Of a stretch of DNA of 64,000 bases, positions 1 through 63,948 are shown in pieces. Source of the stretch: Giardia intestinalis (taxonomy: Eukaryota). The stretch lies in NCBI GenBank assembly GCA_000002435.2, contig CM018793.1. One strand, given 5' to 3'. The first letter of the stretch is position 1. Every line of letters begins with the position of its first letter. The notes under the pieces were generated by a model. That model saw only the letters and a program-made list of their open reading frames with translations. It made no database searches and was not told where the DNA came from. The translations under genes and the position numbers were made by a program.

Positions 1-3000
1 GCACTATTCCCAAGTCGGCAAAGTTAAAAACCGTCAGCTGTAATGTGCTGAACAGCTTATCCAGAAGATGCAAGTGTTCTGTATACTTTGCTATGTGTCG
101 TCGGCACTCTGCTTCTTTCGTCTGGATTGTCTGCTCAATAGTTTGAATTCCTTGCTCTAAGTCATGTAACTCTTTGAGAAGCTCTTCTCTTTGGCTGACA
201 ACACTGGAGTGTCTGTTGCCTGCTTCTGTTAGTTGAGTCTTTAACGTGGATGTTTCAGTTTGAAGGTGTGGAAGCTTTTCGCTACTCAGTGTTTCCCGCT
301 GCTGGTCCAGCTCTTGCAACTTGTGACGATAATTATTAATTTCGTTTTGGAATCGATGCCTGTTGTTCTGCAGCTCTGTTATTTGCTTGCGAGTCCTGGC
401 TATTCGAGGCTCCAGCTTCTTTTGATTGATGCTGGCCTCCTGAAGGGCTTTTGTTAGCTCTTTCTGTTTCTCTGAATGAATGTTAAGGTTCCGCTTGATC
501 TCTATTTGCTCGTTGTTTGCTTGGTTCTCTTCGATTTTCCTTGTTAAAGCTTCTAGCGCTTGAATCTCGTTGGAAAGGCGTTCCTCTTCTGACTTCAGCT
601 GCAGCTCCTGGTCCCCAAGAAGAATCATTTGTCTCATATCAGCATGAAAGATGAATATGCTGCACGGTATGCTTCTAGTTGTGAAGGCATCGGCACATTG
701 GTCCAGAACATCCGTAACATCTCTGTTCGAGGGCTCTCCTCCCGAAAAGATGTCTCCAAAAAGCCCCATCGATAGGATGGAAGCAAGGGCACTGTTCTTA
801 AGTGACTTTAGATGGTGTGACATTGATGTGCTGAGGAGTGCTGGACCTATGTCAGGAAACTCCGACAGAGTGTCCTCAGAGATGCTAAGAAGCGTAGGAC
901 ACAGTCCCATTAGGTTATGTAGAGCATTCTCAATATCTCCGCAACCAGAAACGTCCTGCTCCTCCAGAGCATGATAGAGATCAGAGACCTCATTTCTAAC
1001 TAGGGCAGTAATCTCAATGGCAGACTTAGCCAGTACTGAAGATGCAAACGAGCTGCGAAGAGAGCTAAGAGCGCGAAAGATCAACTCCCGTGCCTTTGAA
1101 AACTCGTCCTGGAAGGCGGTGATTTTTGCCGTTATGGCAGACTTAGCAGCAGCTTCTTCAGACAACGTGGTTTGCGCCAATGCTCGTCTACACGTTTCCA
1201 ATTCGCTATTCAGACCTTCCAGCTTTTCGTGTATAGTGTCAATCTCTACAGAAATGTCATTCTTCAGCTTTCTCCTGTGCACCGCTTCATCTTCTCCCAA
1301 GTCTCTCCCGCGGGCTCCAGAGGCGCCAGTGCCAAGAGCAAATCCCCTACCACCCCGAAGCGTTTTGGCCTTGTCTCCGCCGCCACTGATTACTCCAGAT
1401 GGGTCAAAAACATCTCCCTCATAGGTAACTACACGCTGAGTTGCACCCCTTCCAGATGTAAGCCTATTTGCAAGGTTCATGTCCTCACACAGAAGGGTGT
1501 CCCTGACCACATGCCACAGGGCTGGTCTGCAAGCCTCATCTCTTACATGTAGCTGATCCAGGAAGAGAACAGTGCCCGGCGGAACGTTAACTTGAGGTTG
1601 CCCCGCAATATACTTTCGATATTGGTCACTAACGCGGGATAGGTCTATGAAGTTTGTGACGCCTCTTCGTTGTTCCCGTAGAAAGCGAAGGGCAAGCTCT
1701 ATATTTTCCATGGAATCCACGACTATCATGTTCAGAGACCCCCCAAATGCAGATATTGCTGCCAAATTAATGTCTTGAGAAGCAACCAATGCTAAGCTTC
1801 CTACTCTGCCATAGATTCCTTTAAGTATTCCTTTCGCTTGAGCATCTAGAAGCATTCGTTCTGTTTCTGTTTGCTCCCTCAACACGTCCTGGGAGGCATC
1901 GACGGCCTTTAGACGCTCCTGCAGCTCTACTAGTAACGCTTGAAGCTGTGCCTTTTCTGCATGTAATAATCTATTTTTGTTCTGCACCTGTTGGTATTCT
2001 TGAAGCCTCTCCTCGATGCCAGACAGTAACTGCGAAGAATTGACGTAGGACTCGAGAGATTCCATCAACGATTTAAGGCTAGTGCCAATCAAAAGAATCC
2101 ACAACATAATGTTGCAGCAGAGTTCCCCTAAAGCCGCTGCTGTGGCAAGGCCAGACTGTCTAATGGTTGAAAGTCGCGCGGTAACACCTATTAATTGCTT
2201 GCGCAACGGTACAATATTCTGTGAGATTGTCTCTAACTCTTCTCCTGCTCCTTTCTTACCTGCTTGAGACCCTCCCGCTTTGAAAAGTTTGTCACTTAAT
2301 TCAGAAATTATACCATCCAGACTAGCAATCTCATGCCGCAAGGCCTGTTCTCGTGCCGGAAATTCATTCATTTCTGCTTGATATTGTTGAATAGCCGCTT
2401 CGTGTGAGGCTATCTCTACATCACACTTAGTCAACCAGGACACATGAAGGTCCAGCTTCTCCTCGGTTACTGTCTTCTCTACCTCCAATTCTCTCATGCG
2501 CTCTGTACATCCCTTTTCCAGTGCTGCTAGCTCCTTTAACCTATCATTGAGTTTACCAACTTCAGTTTCAATGGATGAGATTTCTACATTCAGTGGGGAC
2601 AGTCGCTCATTCACCAAGTGCTCGCTTTGTTGGCGAAGCTGTTGTTGCTCTATGCGCCTTGCAGCTATCAGCTTCCGTTGGCTGAAAGCTTGCACCTGAG
2701 AGTACCGTGCGTAAAGCTTGGTACCTTCTGCCAATGACTTTAGGGAGTCCACCACAGCAGCGTGCTGCTCCTCGAGCTCATCTCTATAGGAAACTGCAGT
2801 GCGTAGACGCGTTCGTACTTGGGATCGGGCCTCTTCGAGCAATTGGGTTTCAGCTGTGAGCTGAGCAATGACGGGCACATGCTTATGGGTCCCCACTATG
2901 TTCTCAAGAAACTCCAAAAGCCCACCCTCTCCCGCAGAGGTTACGGAATCCAGATTTGGAGGGTTTTGGGTCTTGTCTCTCAAGTGCTTCAGAAAGGCTT

Positions 3001-3514
3001 CTGTTTGTAAATCCAGTAGGGACTCTGCATTTCGGGGCTTCATAAGCGAAACTTGCTCTATCTCGCCCTGTAGAATTAGGAACCGGTGGCTGGAGAGGTC
3101 CATTCCCCGCTCTCGCATAAAGGTTACGATATCAGCTTGTGTGGCGCGCATTGCATTGATTTCATAATATGACTCCGAGCTTTTACGACGAACGGCTCTA
3201 GAAATAGTGAACTCTGCTCCTGGAACAGCTGCATCCTGGCTGTCATCCCAGAGCGTAAAGTAAACATCTACGCGCGCATGATCCAGCTCCGGATGCTCTG
3301 AGGACGTGTGTATTAAGTCTGCGAGCCTAGAGTGGCGCAGGGCACGGGCTCGCCACCCGAAAACAAAAAGGAGCGAGTCTATAACGTTACTTTTCCCCGA
3401 GCCATTAGCGCCTAGAATACACGAAAAGGATGGCTTGAACGGGCCCAGCACGTGCTCTCCTGCGTAAGACTTGAAGTTTACTAGTCTTAGCTTTGTCAGA
3501 ATGATGCGAGCCAT
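1..3514 (-). CDS. SMC4: SMC family ATPase, SMC4-like condensin subunit (partial; C-terminus lies beyond window start)
   Basis: Minus-strand ATG at 3514..3512 opens a frame with no stop to position 1. N-terminus MARIILTKLRLVNFKSYAGEHVLGPFKPSFSCILGANGSGKSNVIDSLLFVFGWRA carries the Walker A motif and matches the SMC4 head nearly residue for residue. Downstream hinge GIYGRVGSLALVASQD...MIVVDSMENIELALRFLREQRRGVTNFIDL sits between long coiled-coil arms. The ORF track omitted it because it runs off the window edge. Confidence 0.85.
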   Translation of the reverse strand, partial: MARIILTKLRLVNFKSYAGEHVLGPFKPSFSCILGANGSGKSNVIDSLLFVFGWRARALRHSRLADLIHTSSEHPELDHARVDVYFTLWDDSQDAAVPGAEFTISRAVRRKSSESYYEINAMRATQADIVTFMRERGMDLSSHRFLILQGEIEQVSLMKPRNAESLLDLQTEAFLKHLRDKTQNPPNLDSVTSAGEGGLLEFLENIVGTHKHVPVIAQLTAETQLLEEARSQVRTRLRTAVSYRDELEEQHAAVVDSLKSLAEGTKLYARYSQVQAFSQRKLIAARRIEQQQLRQQSEHLVNERLSPLNVEISSIETEVGKLNDRLKELAALEKGCTERMRELEVEKTVTEEKLDLHVSWLTKCDVEIASHEAAIQQYQAEMNEFPAREQALRHEIASLDGIISELSDKLFKAGGSQAGKKGAGEELETISQNIVPLRKQLIGVTARLSTIRQSGLATAAALGELCCNIMLWILLIGTSLKSLMESLESYVNSSQLLSGIEERLQEYQQVQNKNRLLHAEKAQLQALLVELQERLKAVDASQDVLREQTETERMLLDAQAKGILKGIYGRVGSLALVASQDINLAAISAFGGSLNMIVVDSMENIELALRFLREQRRGVTNFIDLSRVSDQYRKYIAGQPQVNVPPGTVLFLDQLHVRDEACRPALWHVVRDTLLCEDMNLANRLTSGRGATQRVVTYEGDVFDPSGVISGGGDKAKTLRGGRGFALGTGASGARGRDLGEDEAVHRRKLKNDISVEIDTIHEKLEGLNSELETCRRALAQTTLSEEAAAKSAITAKITAFQDEFSKARELIFRALSSLRSSFASSVLAKSAIEITALVRNEVSDLYHALEEQDVSGCGDIENALHNLMGLCPTLLSISEDTLSEFPDIGPALLSTSMSHHLKSLKNSALASILSMGLFGDIFSGGEPSNRDVTDVLDQCADAFTTRSIPCSIFIFHADMRQMILLGDQELQLKSEEERLSNEIQALEALTRKIEENQANNEQIEIKRNLNIHSEKQKELTKALQEASINQKKLEPRIARTRKQITELQNNRHRFQNEINNYRHKLQELDQQRETLSSEKLPHLQTETSTLKTQLTEAGNRHSSVVSQREELLKELHDLEQGIQTIEQTIQTKEAECRRHIAKYTEHLHLLDKLFSTLQLTVFNFADLGIV

Positions 3515-3563
3515 GTAATTGAAATGTGAATGCAGATTTTATTTCAGCTGCAACCTGAAGGGC

Positions 3564-3866
3564 TCAGTGGCCCGAAGCCTGGGGCGGCATGCACTGGAAG
3601 GCATCGAACCTTTGGATGTCGACGGTGTCTGCAGCGGGGGCAGGCTTGCGCTGACCACCGCGTGACTGGGGGATCTCCAGGTCCACCTCCTGGTGGAAGA
3701 GCTCGGCTGCCGGGATTTCCCGAAGGGGCGAGATCCGGGGGGCCTCGCTGTAGAGCGGGGCCTGCGCGACCGGGCCGAGGATGCCCCCGGGGCTGGGGGC
3801 GGGCGTGTCGGTAATCTTGTGGGGCGGCGGCTGCGGGGGCTGCGGCGCGCGGGTCTTCCGGGGCAT
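3564..3866 (-). CDS. hypothetical small proline-rich protein (about 100 aa) with extreme GC3 codon bias
   Basis: ATG at 3866..3864 and stop TGA at 3566..3564. About 88% of third codon positions are G/C (CCC, GCC, GAC, ATC, CTC...), typical of highly expressed Giardia genes. The other five frames are open only because the region is GC-rich. The track's upstream extension to 3929 starts on GTG. The ORF ends 49 bp upstream of the SMC4 ATG on the same strand. Confidence 0.45.
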   Translation of the reverse strand: MPRKTRAPQPPQPPPHKITDTPAPSPGGILGPVAQAPLYSEAPRISPLREIPAAELFHQEVDLEIPQSRGGQRKPAPAADTVDIQRFDAFQCMPPQASGH

Positions 3867-3929
3867 TTTCCAGCCACACAGCCCAAGCAGACACAGACAC
3901 GCCCGTCCTTCGCGCCCTCGCGCCCGCAC

Positions 3930-4003
3930 GTGCCCGTGGCGTAATTGGATAGCGCGCCTGACTACGGATCAGGAGGTTGCAGGTTCAAGTCCTGCCGGGT
4001 ACG
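3930..4003 (+). tRNA. tRNA-Arg (anticodon ACG)
   Basis: A manual cloverleaf fits. Acceptor GTGCCCG/CGGGTAC has one G-U pair. U8, D-stem GCGT/GCGC, and D-loop AATTGGATA are present. Anticodon stem CCTGA/TCAGG encloses loop CTACGGA with U33, anticodon ACG and G37. Variable loop AGGTT, T-stem GCAGG/CCTGC, and T-loop TTCAAGT follow. Discriminator is G and the length is 74 nt. Confidence 0.85.
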
Positions 4004-4013
4004 CTTTATCGAG

Positions 4014-6557
4014 ATGGCAGACGCCTGGTTTGCTGCGGCGCGCAAGGGCGACAGGGGGCGCGTCGAGCCTCAGCTATCCTCCTTTGCAGGCAGCAGAGAT
4101 TCCCGGGGACGCACTGCGCTCATGCACGCTGCAGAGTCGGGGGCAGTTGGGGTCATTTCCCTCCTTGTTCCAGAAGAGAAACTCATGGTCGATAACACAG
4201 ATAATTGCGCACTCTCACTAGCAATCTTAGCGGGAAACCTGGAGGCCGCGAAGGCCCTGGTTTATCACGAGTCTACCTTCCGTTATAAAGATGGCCGAGA
4301 CTGCCTCATGTTAGCCGCAGAAGTCGCGGATCTGGATATAGTCGCTCTCCTGGCACAACACGTTGAAAAGAATACAGATGCATACGGCCAAACGGCTCTT
4401 TCATTTGCCGTCCGTCGAGGGGATACCAAGATCATTAAGTATTTACTGCAGCGGTTTAGCTTTACAGAGCAAGAGCTTCTTAGCACTCTTCACAACTTCT
4501 CCGGGCCAAATTTTGTGGAAACCAGCAGCTTGATTTATCTGCAGAGTCGTCGCCTCAAATCCGAGCTTTGCTGCAACTGTCAAACGCTGACAACTAGAAT
4601 GCTGTCACTTGAGCAGGAGATCAGGAGGCTCCAGAACATTCTACAGACAGAACATGTGCAGAATAAAACATTGCATTCAAAACTTCAAGAGCTAGCAGAC
4701 AAGCTGGAATGCCCAAAGGACATTGTGTTTCAAAAACTGGACCAGATGCTATGTTATCTTCTCACTATCCCAGAGAGCCTGCTCAAGGTTCCCATGGAGC
4801 TTTTCGATCACGAGTGTTTCTCAACTAGAAGCTTAAAGGAGCTACCCTTACCCTCAATACAGGCGCTAGACCAATTAAATAAACACATTTTAAATGCAGT
4901 GGAAAAGTACAATCACCAAATTTTTATTCTCCGACAACAGATTGAAACACTCACAAACGAAAAAGACCTTCTTCGGAGGAAGCTCAGCAATTCAGAGCAT
5001 GCTCAGGAGAAACTAGCAGTTGTAATTAAAGCTAAAGAGCAGGAAATTGCAAAGGTTATTGATAAGCACAAGGAATTTAATATCCGGGTCTCTCTACAAG
5101 AAGATGAGCTAAGGAAAAGCAAAGACGCAATAGCTACCCTGACGAAACAGAATAATGAACTAGTACACCAGCTGGAGATATTAGCTTATGAAGATGCTAC
5201 AGTTACCAAAGACGGTATCACCCCGTTAATGAAAAGCATTATGCTGGGGGACTTTGACGCTGCTATGAGCTTTGTTAAGAGATATGCAGGAAGAAAGTCT
5301 GGCGACGGGTCGACAGCCCTACACCTGTTGTTGCAAGCGAAGCGTCTCTGTCCTAGTCCTGCGTCCGTTAAAGGCTATAGCTCGCTCCTGAGCAAACAGA
5401 AAGAAAAACAGCACGCTACTGGACGTATAGATATGCAGGTGTACACGCCTCTAGCGGACAGAGATACAGTCACATCCAATCAGCACCAAAAAGTGCATGC
5501 TCTGCAGTTCAAAGAGTTACCTACAGAAGATTGTCAAACAGTCATATCATCTCAGCCCCCCTGTATAGATGGTAGTGACACAGTCAGCTTAAGTAGCACA
5601 TTAGACCCATTTTTCAGTACATGTGCTCCGTTAAGGTTTATAGATTGCCAGCTGCAGATAGAGGTACTTATACCCTATTTTGACGCAATGATCACCGCAG
5701 AGTTAGAGCCTATGCTTTCCCCAGACGACATTACGGCGGTTTCTCTTTTCCGGCAACTTGCAGAGATAGAGGCTGATTTGCGAAATAAGAACAACGAGAC
5801 AGCTCTAGAGCTAGTACTAAACGATAAGAACATCTTCGCAATTGACATTCTTGCTCCCCACCAAGCACACATCACAACCTCTAAGGGGAACCTCCCCATA
5901 TTTGAGGCGATCAAAATGGCAGCGGACTATCCCCAAGAATGTCAAGACACTAATAGAGAGGAAAGAGCAAAGACTGCGACGGCATGCAGGATATTATTAC
6001 CGCACTCTGTTGGTCTTTGCAGTGACGAGGGTACCACACCACTGATGATGGCCGCACAGCAAAACGTTCAGGAAATCTCATCATTGCTAATGGAGTCTGA
6101 AGCACGAAAACAGAATCTTTATGGGGACACAGCCCTTATGATAGCCGTAGCGTGTGGTCATACCCAAATTGTGCAGGATCTAGCGCCACTGGAGGCGGGT
6201 ATTCTAAATAATGATGGAATTTCGGCCCTAATGTTGGCAATACGGCTGCAAAGGGAGGCAGAGCTAAGGATCCTACTACCGTACGAATTGACGATCCTCG
6301 ATAAACAGGACGAACAACCGCTCCTTACGGTACTTCATACACATAATGCTAGGCTCTCTTATCTTCTTATTGAGGAGCTCATGGTAAAGGTGAGAGCAGC
6401 GTTTGGCGCGGACTCGTCTGCTGAAGTTTCTCTTGACAAGATACAAGAGAATGTTCTGTCTTTTAAGTTTAACTCTGCAATCGCAAAGGCCATTAGTTGG
6501 AGCCATCACTGGCAGGCACTCCATTTGATAGGTAGTCACCCTACGACATCAGAATGA
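4014..6557 (+). CDS. ankyrin-repeat / coiled-coil protein (Giardia 'protein 21.1'-type)
   Basis: The first ATG (MADAWFAAARKG) lies 11 nt after the tRNA 3' end. The track start at 3945 is a TTG that reads through the tRNA. N-terminal ankyrin repeats (TALMHAAESGAVGV..., NCALSLAILAGNLEAAKALV, GQTALSFAVRRGDTKIIKYLL) are followed by a central heptad-rich coiled coil and C-terminal ankyrin repeats (TPLMMAAQQN..., GDTALMIAVACGHTQIV, GISALMLAIRLQ). Confidence 0.8.
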   Translation: MADAWFAAARKGDRGRVEPQLSSFAGSRDSRGRTALMHAAESGAVGVISLLVPEEKLMVDNTDNCALSLAILAGNLEAAKALVYHESTFRYKDGRDCLMLAAEVADLDIVALLAQHVEKNTDAYGQTALSFAVRRGDTKIIKYLLQRFSFTEQELLSTLHNFSGPNFVETSSLIYLQSRRLKSELCCNCQTLTTRMLSLEQEIRRLQNILQTEHVQNKTLHSKLQELADKLECPKDIVFQKLDQMLCYLLTIPESLLKVPMELFDHECFSTRSLKELPLPSIQALDQLNKHILNAVEKYNHQIFILRQQIETLTNEKDLLRRKLSNSEHAQEKLAVVIKAKEQEIAKVIDKHKEFNIRVSLQEDELRKSKDAIATLTKQNNELVHQLEILAYEDATVTKDGITPLMKSIMLGDFDAAMSFVKRYAGRKSGDGSTALHLLLQAKRLCPSPASVKGYSSLLSKQKEKQHATGRIDMQVYTPLADRDTVTSNQHQKVHALQFKELPTEDCQTVISSQPPCIDGSDTVSLSSTLDPFFSTCAPLRFIDCQLQIEVLIPYFDAMITAELEPMLSPDDITAVSLFRQLAEIEADLRNKNNETALELVLNDKNIFAIDILAPHQAHITTSKGNLPIFEAIKMAADYPQECQDTNREERAKTATACRILLPHSVGLCSDEGTTPLMMAAQQNVQEISSLLMESEARKQNLYGDTALMIAVACGHTQIVQDLAPLEAGILNNDGISALMLAIRLQREAELRILLPYELTILDKQDEQPLLTVLHTHNARLSYLLIEELMVKVRAAFGADSSAEVSLDKIQENVLSFKFNSAIAKAISWSHHWQALHLIGSHPTTSE

Positions 6558-16643: not shown

Positions 16644-17528
16644 TTAGGTCACTATATTCTGGTAAATGTAGTGTCTCCTTGAAAAGCTAAACGCAGGGGC
16701 TCTGCGTGTAGTTAATGTTAAACTACCAACATGGTAATGCCCTGGCCCGGGAGAAATCGTCTGAATCCCCTCGCAGACCTCGTTGAGTGACCTACCTTTC
16801 CGTTGGATCGTGAATGCAGGTGCGCTTCTTCTGAGCAGTCTAGGGTGGTATCCAGCCGGCCCTGGGCCTAATGTCTCTGTCGTCTGCCTGTGTCGAGACC
16901 CGAACGTGAACCCAGATGACGAGCACCACCGAGCAGGAACTTTAGGTGTGTAGTCTGCTGGGCCGGGAGCAGGGGCAGAGAGACTCAGGGGTCCTGTTGC
17001 GGGACTGGAGACAGGCCGCATGCCTATCGTCCCTCCGTGGATGCGGGGCCAGAGAGGCGTCATGCTCACCTGGTAATCTCCAGGCCCTGGAGTGGCATCC
17101 TGTGGCGGTGACCGGGGACGGCCCGAGATGCTTGAGGCTCTCGCAGACCGATGTGTTACAGCAATGCTTGGGATATGGTAATCTGCGGGTCCGGGGCTTC
17201 GCTCACGCAATACAGCAGACTGTGCTCTCCGAGGTTGGGTGCTAAATCGGTACGCTGGGGAGCGATGCCGGAGTGCGAGGGCGTTGCCATGATAATCACT
17301 GGGCCCCGGCGTGGACTGTATGCTAGATTGGCTTGTACGGCTCCTCATAGTGAACGCAGGCCCAGGATTGCGAAGGATTGGTGTGTAGTCAGCTGGCCCC
17401 GGAGATGACTCTACCGCCGAATTGTTGTAGCGCCTCTGAATTGTGAAGCGGGGACCGTCGTTTGTGCTTTTTGGACAATATCCGCCCGGACCAGGCCCGA
17501 TTGAGATGACATCGTTCCATTCTGGCAT
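16644..17528 (-). CDS. sperm-tail PG-rich repeat (SHIPPO/ODF3-like) protein
   Basis: ATG at 17528 (MPEWNDVISIGPGPGGY). At least eight repeats of PGP(G/A)xY...GPAFT(M/I) (PGPADYTPILRNPGPAFTM, SPGPADYHIP, TPGPGDYQV, PGPADYTPK, GPGPAGYHP...SAPAFTI, SPGPGHYHV). The track start at 17573 is TTG. Confidence 0.8.
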   Translation of the reverse strand: MPEWNDVISIGPGPGGYCPKSTNDGPRFTIQRRYNNSAVESSPGPADYTPILRNPGPAFTMRSRTSQSSIQSTPGPSDYHGNALALRHRSPAYRFSTQPRRAQSAVLRERSPGPADYHIPSIAVTHRSARASSISGRPRSPPQDATPGPGDYQVSMTPLWPRIHGGTIGMRPVSSPATGPLSLSAPAPGPADYTPKVPARWCSSSGFTFGSRHRQTTETLGPGPAGYHPRLLRRSAPAFTIQRKGRSLNEVCEGIQTISPGPGHYHVGSLTLTTRRAPAFSFSRRHYIYQNIVT

Positions 17529-17587
17529 GGCGTATACAGATTGCCCAGTGTTTTTGAACAAAAATTGTTGCAAATTTCAATTTTGCT
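17529..17587. promoter_or_regulatory. shared AT-rich divergent promoter / initiator region of the two PG-rich repeat genes
   Basis: A 59-bp AT-rich spacer (ttgcccagtgtttttgaacaaaaattgttgcaaatttcaattttgct) lies between two divergent ATGs. Giardia promoters are short AT-rich initiators close to the ATG. Confidence 0.5.
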
Positions 17588-47390: not shown

Positions 47391-47618
47391 CGACCACGAG
47401 TGCCTCGGCAGCTTAAGTAAAGGGTCAGAGCATTGTAAGACGGCAAACGTCACAAGGTAAGACGGGCGGCCGTCGTCCTCAAGATAGGTCGCTCCCAATC
47501 ATCATATCTCATACGAATGGATCGGAGGGCGATGAATTTCAAAGTCTAATTCCAATTCTAAATAGATGACTCCAGCTGTAACCTTTACAGCGTCACATGG
47601 GTCGGGTCTTGGAACAAT

Positions 47619-61142: not shown

Positions 61143-61237
61143 TTGGAGTGCCGGGAGTCGAACCCGGGTCGTAACCGCATACGTAGTTGATAGCCATGCC
61201 ATCAAAGGCCACTGTGCTCCCGCTGCACCACACCCCA
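61143..61237 (-). tRNA. tRNA-like gene, probably intron-containing (tentative anticodon UUG, Gln)
   Basis: On the minus strand the acceptor TGGGGTG/CACTCCA pairs fully with one G-U. U8, D-stem GTGC/GCAC, and D-loop AGCGGGA (A14, GG, A21) are present. Anticodon stem GTGGC pairs with GTTAC across a 25-nt insertion that follows loop CTTTGA (U33, TTG, A37). The insert contains TCAAC, complementary to the anticodon. T-stem CCGGG/CCCGG and T-loop TTCGACT are present; discriminator is A. The variable loop is only 3 nt (GAC), so this is not fully canonical. Confidence 0.4.
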
Positions 61238-61289
61238 CGGGGAAGGGCAGCAGCGTAAACGTGTGTGTGTCGTACTTGGAAGTGGAGGG

Positions 61290-61620
61290 ACGCGGATAGC
61301 ACTGGTTGCTCAGACGTGGGGGCTCACCGAGGGTAGCTGGCCAGCCCTCATCGCCCCAGCTCCCCCCACCTCACTCACCGGCCGGCCTGCTGTGGAACCC
61401 AGGTGACCGCGACTGTAGAGCACTGCCCGGGACACAGCCGGACGGACACCGAGGGGCCCAGCCAGCGGAGGGCCCGATGGCAGACGGGGCATCTAAAAAG
61501 GACGGCGACCAGAGCTTCACCCACCGTGAAGGGAGACCAAGGAGAGGCGCCACCGGTAGAGCAGAGGGTCTGCGAGAGGACCCGAACCCCTAAAGGACCG
61601 ACGTGCACACTCGGACCGAG
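61290..61620. other. GC-rich (about 65-70% GC) non-coding island upstream of the tRNA-like gene; candidate structured ncRNA or regulatory region
   Basis: No frame shows codon bias and all track ORFs here start on GTG. Palindromic GC segments are present (ccggccggcc; cccgggacacagccggacgg). It lies in a 1.28-kb gene-free spacer between two divergent genes. Confidence 0.3.
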
Positions 61621-62100
61621 TACACCTCTGCGGAGCGACCAGGGAAGGTGCCAGGTTTTAGATATACTAAAAGAGAGGAGCTCCTCGTTATATCATCCAC
61701 AACCAGCCCTCGTCTCCGGACACGACCACAGGAGCGAGACTTACTCCTGGGATTTCTGGGTGCCCCTACAGGTAATCCCAACAGCACAGCGCTTCTTCCC
61801 GTCCAGGCAGCTCTTGTGAAGAGCATCGGTCCAGTTTCATAGCAGTGGGTGCATTCATTATTTGAGTGGACCATTCGTGGGGTGATGGCTACTGTCGTAA
61901 GCACCGGTGATGTGCGAGGGGCCGTTCTTGAGATGCCACAACGCCCATTCTCTCCTTGGTCCCTAGAGACACCACACACAGGAGAGGCCGCTAGGACACC
62001 AGAGATCCGCTACACCGGGGTAAGCCTGTAGGGTGCACATTATCCTCACTCACCACGTGGCAGCGTCGCCTGGTGTTGCGTGCTCTATGGGCTGCCGGCA

Positions 62101-63948
62101 ATGTTCGAGAAAATCATCTTCGGAATCGCCATCCTGCAAGTGGTATGGGCAGCAACGACATGCACAGAGGCTAGCAGTGACCCGCAAACAGGACAGTGCG
62201 CAACAGGAAAGTGCGACGTCTGGATTGGGGGCTCAAACTTCTGCTCCCAGTGCTCGACAGCAGCAGAGCATCTTATCAATGGAAAATGTGTGCCTGAAGG
62301 TGAAGACACTGAAGGAAAATGTACAGCAAAGAATGATGGCACATGTGAATCTTGTAAAGCCGGCTTTTTCCTGCACAGAGGAGGGTGCTACGAGATGGGA
62401 AGCGATATCGGGCTCCTTGTGTGCAACGATAGAACTGCCACGGCTGATAAGGATGGAATATGCATAGCTTGCCACGACGGGTACTTCAAGAATCCTGCAT
62501 CTGACGCTGATAAAACGAAGGAGTCCTGTATTGCATGCAACAACACGGCCGGCGTGGATCATAATAAGGGGGTTCAGAACTGTGCGACGTGCGACGCCCC
62601 GAAAACTCCCGGACAAAGCAGTGCAGAACAGACGGCCACATGTAAAAGCTGTGTGGACGGATACTATGGCACTACAAGCTGTCAGCAGTGCCATGCAGAT
62701 TGTAGAACGTGCACCGGCAACGGTGAGGATAAATGCACCTCCTGCAAGGATACTGGTAAGCAATACTTCAAAGAAGGGGCCAATAGCGACGGGACAGGCA
62801 CGTGTGTTGACGAAAACGGATGTGGTAACACACACTTCCCAATAGCAGAGGACAAAAAGTGCCATCTCTGCGGTAGTGTCAGTGAGGGCGGTGTGGCCGA
62901 CTGCAAGACGTGCTCAAAGACTGGAGATTCCGTTAAGTGTCTTACCTGCGAGGGTACTAAAAAACCCAATGAAGCCGGAACAGGCTGCTTTGTGTGTCCC
63001 ATGGAGCATTGCGAAAAGTGCAGTAAGGACAACGTCTGCGAAGCTTGCGGATCAGAAAAGAAGCTGAGCCCCTTGGGAGACGCGTGCTTAGATGCCTGTC
63101 CCGCGGGAACTCGCACTGACGCTAACGTTTGTAATCTGTGCCACGAATCGTGTGCAAGCTGTAGCACTAACGCAGAAGCGTCGTGCACGGCCTGCTATCC
63201 AGGGTATGTGTTGAATCGGTCATCTGATGACACAGGAACGTGCATAAAAGAGTGCACGGGAGACTTTATGGCCCACTGCAAGGCCGACGGCTGCTCACTG
63301 AACGTCGGAGGCTCGAAGTACTGCGATCAGTGCGAGGAGGGGTACGCCCCAGTCGACGGCGTTTGCACATCCATACCTGCAGCAGCGAGGGATGCCTCCG
63401 GATGTAAGGCAAGTGGCGGGAAATGCACTGAGTGTGGAGCAAACTACGCTCTGTTATCGGGCGGATGCTACAACACACAGAAGCTTCCTGGTAGCTCTGT
63501 GTGTACGGCTGCACAGAATAAGGGACAATGCCAAACGTGTGCCAATGGACAAAGCCCAGCTGGAAGAAAATGTCCGGCGTGTACTGAAGGATGTGTGAAG
63601 TGTGCGGGTAGTAAGGAAACCTGCACAGATTGCTTAGCAGGGTATTACAAAGATGCCGGTGATAAATGCTTCAAATGCACGGATAGTGATAAGGCTAGCT
63701 CTAATGCAATAACTGGTGTAGAAAACTGCATAAGCTGTGCCCCGCCAGCTGGTGGCAATGGCCCTGTCACCTGTTACGTAACGCAACAAAAGGCTGACGA
63801 TGGCACCGGCGGAGATACTGGAGGAGACAGCACGAACAGGAGCGGCCTCAGCACGGGGGCCATAGCAGGGATCTCCGTCGCTGTCATCGTCGTGGGGGGC
63901 CTCGTGGGCTTCCTCTGCTGGTGGTTCATATGTAGAGGGAAGGCGTGA
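62101..63948 (+). CDS. vsp: variant-specific surface protein (VSP)
   Basis: First ATG at 62101 gives signal peptide MFEKIIFGIAILQVVWA; the track start at 62080 is GTG. More than 25 CXXC motifs and two GGCY motifs are present. C-terminal TM AIAGISVAVIVVGGLVGFLCWWFI is followed by the invariant cytoplasmic tail CRGKA and a stop. Confidence 0.9.
   Translation: MFEKIIFGIAILQVVWAATTCTEASSDPQTGQCATGKCDVWIGGSNFCSQCSTAAEHLINGKCVPEGEDTEGKCTAKNDGTCESCKAGFFLHRGGCYEMGSDIGLLVCNDRTATADKDGICIACHDGYFKNPASDADKTKESCIACNNTAGVDHNKGVQNCATCDAPKTPGQSSAEQTATCKSCVDGYYGTTSCQQCHADCRTCTGNGEDKCTSCKDTGKQYFKEGANSDGTGTCVDENGCGNTHFPIAEDKKCHLCGSVSEGGVADCKTCSKTGDSVKCLTCEGTKKPNEAGTGCFVCPMEHCEKCSKDNVCEACGSEKKLSPLGDACLDACPAGTRTDANVCNLCHESCASCSTNAEASCTACYPGYVLNRSSDDTGTCIKECTGDFMAHCKADGCSLNVGGSKYCDQCEEGYAPVDGVCTSIPAAARDASGCKASGGKCTECGANYALLSGGCYNTQKLPGSSVCTAAQNKGQCQTCANGQSPAGRKCPACTEGCVKCAGSKETCTDCLAGYYKDAGDKCFKCTDSDKASSNAITGVENCISCAPPAGGNGPVTCYVTQQKADDGTGGDTGGDSTNRSGLSTGAIAGISVAVIVVGGLVGFLCWWFICRGKA

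Follow-up and report, generated by a model that had tools for sequence, protein, structure and literature searches.

The DNA examined here, referred to as the window, is a stretch of 64,000 nucleotides (nt) from Giardia intestinalis (contig CM018793.1 of assembly GCA_000002435.2), and the feature of interest within it is a GC-rich island at positions 3515 to 3929. A first-pass annotation had placed this island between SMC4 and a tRNA-Arg gene and had proposed that it carries a real small protein-coding gene. Both flanks were found as named, with the SMC4 ATG at 3514 on the minus strand and tRNA-Arg(ACG) at 3930 to 4004 on the plus strand, and the island is very probably the body of a genuine, short, intronless minus-strand gene that is already annotated, is likely to be well expressed, and would encode a disordered protein. 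The locus contains the following features, the first of which is identified by an exact protein match, GC periodicity, the ratio of nonsynonymous to synonymous substitution rates (dN/dS), and a frame that stays open in relatives.

3564 to 3866, minus strand: coding sequence (ATG 3866, TGA 3566 to 3564) of a 100-amino-acid protein, GL50803_0060537 / XP_037902386.1
3515 to 3563, minus strand: AT-rich gap of 49 nt (39% GC) from the stop codon of the small gene to the SMC4 ATG, holding a conserved ATAAAATC (3535 to 3542)
3867 to 3929, no strand assigned: divergent 63-nt spacer from the small gene to tRNA-Arg, with an A-rich start context GGAAAATG (minus strand, 3867 to 3870) and, directly 5' of the tRNA, roughly 20 nt of GC-rich sequence (about 3910 to 3929)
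1 to 3514, minus strand: SMC4-like gene, ATG at 3514, cut by the start of the window; 98 to 100% identity to XP_001708534.1, SMC4-like protein of Giardia duodenalis
3930 to 4004, plus strand: tRNA-Arg(ACG), the divergent neighbor, called by ARAGORN and scoring 64.1 bits with the Rfam tRNA model
4014 to 6557, plus strand: ankyrin-repeat protein gene, an open reading frame (ORF) whose orthologues have Ank Pfam families recorded on them

The island stands out by composition, as first described (about 70% GC in a locus of about 50%): GC content is 0.67 over 3515 to 3929, 0.716 over 3564 to 3866, and 0.71 over 3564 to 3929, compared to 0.49 for the whole window. Within the small ORF, GC content at the first, second, and third codon positions (GC1, GC2, and GC3) is 0.73, 0.55, and 0.86, and 87 of the 100 sense codons end in C or G. 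The third-position bias, put at about 88% in the first-pass annotation, is specific to this frame. Three-base periodicity of GC, expressed as the difference between the richest and poorest phase, reached 0.31, a value attained by 0 of 100000 mononucleotide shuffles, and phase and GC were strongly associated in the small ORF (chi-square of 23.6, p = 7e-6). The GC3 of this ORF is the highest among 70 ATG-initiated ORFs of at least 80 amino acids in the window, where the next real gene has a GC3 of 0.67 and long ORFs range from 0.39 to 0.61.

Codon usage pointed to the same frame. Using codon counts from 33 putatively highly expressed Giardia genes (“Giardia hi,” PMC1805757 Table 2) as the reference, the codon adaptation index (CAI) of the small-ORF frame was 0.70, the best of six, while the other five frames of the same DNA scored 0.38 to 0.57, so that the six-frame comparison of GC3 and codon adaptation suggested in the first-pass annotation did set this frame apart. 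Twenty long ORFs in the window had CAI values of 0.38 to 0.53. The log-likelihood ratio of highly versus weakly expressed codon usage was likewise at the top of the six frames, at +27.7 bits.

The same stretch had been described as open in every frame, with five mutually overlapping ORFs. The three minus-strand frames are indeed open throughout 3564 to 3866, but each plus-strand frame carries one or two stops, and the ORFs do overlap but number seven when those of at least 30 amino acids are included. The alternative overlapping ORFs, including one at 3781 to 4221 on the plus strand that shares third positions with the gene, were rejected because they acquire stops in lower-GC orthologues. Antisense frames of the small gene were also rejected as coding, every one of them having stops even in the WB sequence.

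Comparison across Giardia supplied further evidence. The window itself belongs to G. duodenalis assemblage A and comes from WB or a nearly identical isolate, judging by the Giardia snoRNA GlsR13 that it carries and by its SMC4 match to the WB protein XP_001708534.1. Orthologous loci of three further lineages were obtained by exact-sequence look-ups of matches and of SMC4 orthologues, in addition to assemblage A, represented by WB and by isolate DH (A2).

Contigs L005 to L008, from human gut metagenomes: probably assemblage B; SMC4 81% and small protein 89% identical to WB
Contigs L002 to L004, from runs ERR3333379, ERR3333382, and SRR17450158: first outer lineage; SMC4 75% and small protein 72% identical to WB
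Contig L010, from run ERR3333380: second outer lineage; SMC4 77% and small protein 73% identical to WB

Between the two outer lineages the distance is about the same as between either of them and A or B, a pattern that would be compatible with the dog assemblages C and D; the labels B, C, and D are to be taken as probable and unconfirmed. An additional A-type contig, L013, brought no new divergence.

In every G. duodenalis lineage compared, an ORF of 92 to 100 codons lies on the same strand 49 to 71 nt upstream of the SMC4 ATG, and the order of small ORF followed by SMC4 is common to all four lineages. The conservation check proposed in the first-pass annotation therefore turned out in favor of the gene, with the ORF kept, dN/dS low, and differences concentrated at third positions. 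The small-ORF frame is the sole frame of six without a stop in all five sequences compared; the others have one to four stops in lower-GC orthologues. Conservation begins exactly at the ATG, whose start context, AAAATG, is the same in each of the five aligned sequences, and stops at FDAFQ; the C-terminal tails beyond it vary in both length and sequence. An A-rich motif adjoining Giardia start codons has been described (PMC7000408). The single indel in the coding body is a whole codon (3 nt). Differences between A and B at codon positions 1, 2, and 3 number 5, 6, and 39 (p = 2e-10), and those between A and L003 number 17, 15, and 48. Nei-Gojobori dN/dS values for the small gene are 0.05 to 0.07 between A and B and 0.11 to 0.16 to L003, with L010 excluded from the calculation, compared to 0.06 to 0.07 for SMC4.

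Because of the low dN/dS, the excess of third-position differences, the whole-codon indel, and the sole stop-free frame, this pattern marks a translated gene that strong purifying selection has preserved across G. duodenalis lineages, as opposed to a chance ORF. To judge from these alignments, purifying selection on the small protein is at least as strong as on its neighbor SMC4, which is an essential gene (89% identity between A and B for the small protein versus 81% for SMC4). The proposal of a real small protein-coding gene is thus supported by both frame-specific codon bias and conservation. Upstream of SMC4 in G. muris and in a relative (L012), a search of that locus only found no small ORF; in its place, a leucine-rich repeat (LRR) gene precedes SMC4 by 18 nt. 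Within the reach of sequence searches, the small protein appears to be confined to the G. duodenalis complex.

The 100-amino-acid translation quoted in the first-pass annotation was reproduced exactly from the minus-strand ORF (ATG 3866 to TGA 3564), and it is 100% identical over all 100 residues to GL50803_0060537 (XP_037902386.1, KAE8306082.1) of G. intestinalis WB. The idea that annotation had missed this gene fails, since GL50803_0060537 is already listed as a hypothetical protein in the 2020 WB reference annotation. It is an ordinary, previously annotated orphan gene, and the gene catalogue gains nothing new. In the 2020 re-annotation, new genes were numbered 0060xxx, for example GL50803_0060288, and 69 hypothetical proteins were added, guided by RNA sequencing, by motifs at start codons, and by homologues from further Giardia genomes (PMC7000408). 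Its 0060xxx identifier and new-style RefSeq accession suggest that GL50803_0060537 belongs to those 69 additions. The counterpart in isolate DH is DHA2_150500 (ESU39098.1), which differs from the WB protein at 1 residue, and the DH record calls it 5 codons too long at the N terminus, from a TTG. Automatic gene calls omitted the intact small ORF on the public contigs L010 (1 to 402) and L013 (1 to 420); short GC3-rich genes are called inconsistently by such pipelines.

The encoded protein is predicted to be intrinsically disordered. An AlphaFold model built on a 3-sequence alignment had a predicted template modeling score (pTM) of 0.13, a mean predicted local distance difference test score (pLDDT) of 64, almost no secondary structure, and no fold. 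Conservation is concentrated in the blocks MPRK, HKITD.PA.SP, P.YSEAPRISPL, A.ELFHQE.DLEIPQSR, G.RKPA, and T.D.Q.FDAFQ. The motifs HKITD.PA.SP, YSEAPRISPL, ELFHQE.DLEIPQSR, and FDAFQ within them do not vary between the lineages. Because a disordered protein is conserved in blocks, it most likely binds partners through several short linear motifs. Two S-P sites are invariant, S25-P and S46-P-L-R/K, and the second has the full consensus of cyclin-dependent kinase (CDK) sites, S-P-x-[KR], which suggests that the protein is probably regulated by proline-directed phosphorylation. In-silico tryptic peptides include APQPPQPPPHK, ISPLR, EIPAAELFHQEVDLEIPQSR, and KPAPAADTVDIQR.

The high GC of the gene can be broken down by codon position. 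GC1 (0.61 to 0.73) and GC2 (0.48 to 0.56) are high in all lineages owing to the large share of Pro (20%), Ala, Gly, and Arg in the protein. GC3 moves between lineages: in the small gene versus SMC4, it is 0.86 versus 0.49 in A, 0.81 versus 0.46 in L010, 0.56 versus 0.42 in B, and 0.52 versus 0.36 in L003. The small gene exceeds SMC4 in every lineage, and the excess is larger where the background GC3 of the lineage is higher. The ankyrin gene provides a second background, with a GC3 of 0.48 in A and 0.39 in B. Because the SMC4 and ankyrin backgrounds differ steadily, silent-site composition appears to have shifted genome-wide between assemblages. The swing in the small gene persists at 56 codons with an invariant amino acid, where GC3 is 0.86 in A, 0.88 in L010, 0.57 in B, and 0.48 in L003. 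At sites with G or C in A and A or T in B, both outer lineages side with A at 7, both side with B at 3, and they split at 8. Votes of 7 against 3 from the outgroups suggest that the GC3-rich state is probably ancestral and was eroded in B and L003.

These observations fit a mechanism in which the high GC of the island would arise from two stacked causes, the abundance of Pro, Ala, Gly, and Arg acting at codon positions 1 and 2 and the near-exclusive use of G/C-ending codons acting at position 3. The small gene would be well expressed, a reading suggested by the enrichment of codons ending in G or C in highly expressed Giardia genes (PMC8393687; PMC1805757 Table 2), and its silent sites would be held GC-rich by codon-usage selection or by an equally gene-local process favoring GC. 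Across Giardia genes, GC3 at synonymous sites (GC3s) correlates with CAI (r = 0.90), all 26 optimal codons end in G or C, and small gene size has been reported to be linked with codon bias (PMC8393687).

Several points weigh against a well-expressed gene shaped by translational selection and with an assignable function. Neither GL50803_60537 nor GL50803_0060537 is mentioned in any paper of the searched literature, and homology gives no backing for a function, Pfam, PDB, and remote profile searches having returned no credible match. Pfam produced only a sub-threshold Phage_zn_bind_4 (E = 0.11, 13 bits versus a cut-off of 27), and a PDB profile search was empty at E values up to 10. A profile search of 1.84 billion representative proteins returned the family itself and P0032 only (E = 5.7e-4). 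P0032, a 700-amino-acid protein with four repeats of HEAQLDEICQSKGGKRL, was rejected as a homologue; the match was judged to be chance over 25 residues because the Giardia protein lacks the Cys and His of that zinc-binding repeat. The database entries for GL50803_0060537 and DHA2_150500 record no function. The remaining points concern codons. CGG makes up 3 of the 7 Arg codons in the WB small gene but 7 of 509 in the highly expressed set. Within G/C-ending codons, the choice departs from the highly expressed pattern in WB (−8.9 bits); in the other lineages, the log-likelihood ratio given G/C endings is about 0 to +2 bits. CAI is weaker in two of the four lineages, at 0.54 and 0.50. The GC3 of the orthologues (0.86, 0.81, 0.56, and 0.52) tracks lineage background, the noncoding spacer follows roughly the same trend, and GC-biased mutation or gene conversion explains the spread in GC3 as well as translational selection does.

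It is accordingly possible, if on balance doubtful, that the gene is real while its extreme GC3 reflects a local neutral force, with GC-biased gene conversion and a mutation bias near the tRNA, linked to transcription or recombination, as candidates. Nonoptimal CGG and the unlike choice among G/C-ending codons speak for such a force, as do the spacer between small gene and tRNA (GC of 0.68 in A and 0.60 in B, roughly tracking the GC3 of the ORF across lineages) and the start of the ankyrin gene, where a GC3 of 0.68 over 40 codons extends the GC-rich zone to about 4150. The edges of the island on the SMC4 side argue the other way, since they are sharp, with the 3' gap at 39% GC and an adjoining SMC4 GC3 of 0.49 to 0.57. 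High GC3 also occurs in two non-sister lineages and is apparently ancestral at invariant codons, which fits long-term maintenance, and in Giardia GC3 is the chief correlate of expression-linked codon bias.

The position of the gene invites a second idea, which we regard as very unlikely: that SMC4 lost its N-terminal regulatory tail by gene fission and that the small protein is this tail, now acting in trans on condensin under CDK control. In this scheme, which is improbable in its functional form as well, a disordered protein encoded 49 to 71 nt before a tail-less SMC4 would stand in for the tail, with S-P-L-R/K as a phospho-switch. If true, the tail substitute would be a lineage-specific regulator of condensin and hence of chromosome condensation. 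Giardia is not known to have an anaphase-promoting complex. The small gene immediately precedes SMC4, in the same orientation, in each of the four G. duodenalis lineages, as the idea predicts, and Giardia SMC4 begins at the head core MARIILTKLRLVNFKSYAGE with no tail, while human SMC4 has an 80-amino-acid disordered tail (PDB 9f5w_B) and yeast Smc4 has one of 150 amino acids (6yvu_B). The human sequence MPRKGTQPS...PPPPSPDG can be set beside MPRKTRAPQ...TPAPSPGG in Giardia, and the S-P sites, including S46-P-L-R/K, are invariant.

These likenesses found no consistent statistical support. Local alignment to the human tail, compared to composition-matched shuffles, gave p values of 0.10, 0.05, 0.003, and 0.09 in the four lineages, each from a different alignment. 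Even the tails of established SMC4s show little conservation, which limits what sequence comparison can decide here. The PDB profile search, which includes human and yeast SMC4, was empty, as described above. SMC4 is tail-less in G. muris, L012, and P0017 as well, and the upstream DNA of G. muris and L012 holds no small ORF. The frame offset between ORF and SMC4 also varies between lineages (1, 2, 2, and 1 modulo 3), so that no read-through or fusion product with SMC4 is expected; a read-through or frameshift fusion was rejected on the grounds of these differing offsets and of a gap that has diverged apart from its AT-rich element. As a separate observation, the SMC4 proteins of the Giardia clade (the window gene, L011, L012, and P0017) all start at the ATPase head core, 0 to 7 residues before ...NFKSYAG.

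Three further explanations have almost no standing. The first, which we consider scarcely credible, is that the island is noncoding spacer and its long ORFs result merely from the scarcity of stops at 70% GC. All three WB minus-strand frames are open, the seven ORFs overlap, and gene callers skipped the ORF on contigs L010 and L013, as this view would have it. The three-base periodicity, unmatched by any of the shuffles, runs counter to it, and the second GC-rich island of the window (61250 to 61650), which serves as a noncoding contrast, has none. A single frame stays open where the region is only 54 to 60% GC in other lineages, and dN/dS is low (0.05 to 0.16) with differences mostly at third positions. 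In practice, this pattern of conservation refutes a chance ORF.

A Cip/Kip-like CDK inhibitor was suggested by eye, from the likeness of ELFHQEVDLEI + 25 amino acids + RFDAFQ to p27 RNLFGPVDHEEL + 25 amino acids + WNFDFQ, in which the spacing from a conserved Asp to Phe-Asp is equal. Profile-profile comparison with hhalign, four Giardia sequences against 13 kinase-inhibitory domains (p21 and p57 among them), gave a probability of 0.6% and did not recover the by-eye alignment, and on this result the proposal was rejected as next to impossible. Pfam CDI (PF02234) had no match at E values up to 10, a protein search with p27 returned only vertebrate p27 orthologues, the linker is Pro/Gly-rich and not helical, and the protein stops short of the part that enters the kinase.

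A structured noncoding RNA gene with an incidental ORF is just as implausible. Giardia small nucleolar RNAs (snoRNAs), small nuclear RNAs, and RNase P/MRP RNAs are GC-rich, the island adjoins a tRNA, and noncoding RNA genes of high GC are present in the window, among them the following:

47423 to 47522, minus strand: box C/D snoRNA GlsR13, 129.5 bits versus a gathering score of 100

Noncoding RNA was rejected for the island itself, since an Rfam search over 3300 to 4200 at E values up to 10 found the tRNA only, folding compared to dinucleotide shuffles showed no excess (z = −0.7 and −1.5 on the two strands), and substitutions follow codon positions, unlike those in RNA structure.

With the small gene read as protein coding, its two flanks can be considered as regulatory DNA. 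In the gap before SMC4, an AAAATC element is invariant in all five G. duodenalis sequences, as ATAAAATC in four and as GAAAAATC in L003. It lies about 20 to 28 nt upstream of the SMC4 ATG (alignment A3, columns 407 to 414) in a gap that has otherwise diverged, and is probably an AT-rich initiator for SMC4, a 3'-end signal for the small gene, or both. On the other side, the spacer at 3867 to 3929 would act as a promoter. The approximately 20 nt directly 5' of tRNA-Arg (3910 to 3929; L005 2938 to 2957; plus strand ...GCGCCCTCGCGCCCGCAC) are identical in A and probable B and partly kept in L003, and the remainder of the tRNA-side spacer has diverged between lineages. These conserved 20 nt may serve the tRNA gene as an upstream element or belong to the divergent promoter. 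The tRNA-Arg gene is at the same place in DH and in probable assemblage B. The ankyrin ATG (4014) lies 9 nt past the 3' end of tRNA-Arg, an arrangement also present in DH and probable assemblage B, and because the ATG is only 9 nt beyond the tRNA, the ankyrin promoter must overlap the tRNA gene.

Two other GC-rich regions occur in the window. The second island, at 61250 to 61650 (66 to 68% GC), lies between a tRNA at 61143 to 61237 and a VSP-like gene at 62101 to 63948 on the plus strand (CRGKA tail). It has no periodicity (phase GC of 0.60, 0.69, and 0.68), no coding-like ATG ORF, no Rfam match, and no folding signal (z = +2.6 and +0.5). The neighboring tRNA, on the minus strand and 95 nt long, was called His with anticodon ATG by ARAGORN, which is implausible; the Infernal tRNA model scores it at 43 bits and places some 25 inserted nt after the anticodon arm. 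The gene probably contains an intron or an extended variable arm, and the called isotype is doubtful. A third patch, at 16851 to 17250 (62 to 64% GC), falls within a 309-amino-acid minus-strand ORF at 16644 to 17573, which consists of repeated PGPxxY (SHIPPO/PG-rich) motifs and as listed starts at a TTG. The patch is GC-rich because of the composition of the PGPxxY repeats.

Three-base GC periodicity inside a GC-rich island thus correctly flagged a real short gene, and the second island showed neither periodicity nor a conserved ORF signal. Beyond the existing annotation, this analysis adds purifying selection, restriction to the G. duodenalis complex, a GC3 that swings from 0.52 to 0.86 between lineages, and a product with no detectable homologue or fold. 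The small gene would make a modest case study for codon-bias turnover between assemblages and is a sensible target for tagging and knock-down in Giardia.

Three known systems invite comparison. Cip/Kip inhibitors resemble the small protein in being small and disordered and in an LF ... FD.F arrangement at similar spacing, as seen by eye; the Giardia protein has no cyclin-binding RxL arginine and no linker helix, and it lacks the C-terminal half of the inhibitory domain. The human and yeast SMC4 tails (human 1 to 80, yeast 1 to 150) are, like the small protein, disordered and Pro-rich with S/T-P sites, and are encoded just before the SMC4 head; the human tail and the small protein both begin with MPRK and both have P.PSP[DG]G near residues 22 to 28. 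The Giardia sequence differs in that it forms a gene by itself, closed by a stop codon and variably offset in frame from SMC4, and the similarity is not backed by statistics. The third comparison is with highly expressed Giardia genes (Lafay and Sharp 1999, as cited in PMC8393687; PMC1805757). The small gene differs from these in not using the optimal subset within G/C endings, in its weaker bias in two lineages, and in an expression level deduced from codons, and it shares with them a high GC3 (0.86), a CAI of 0.70, and a short length.

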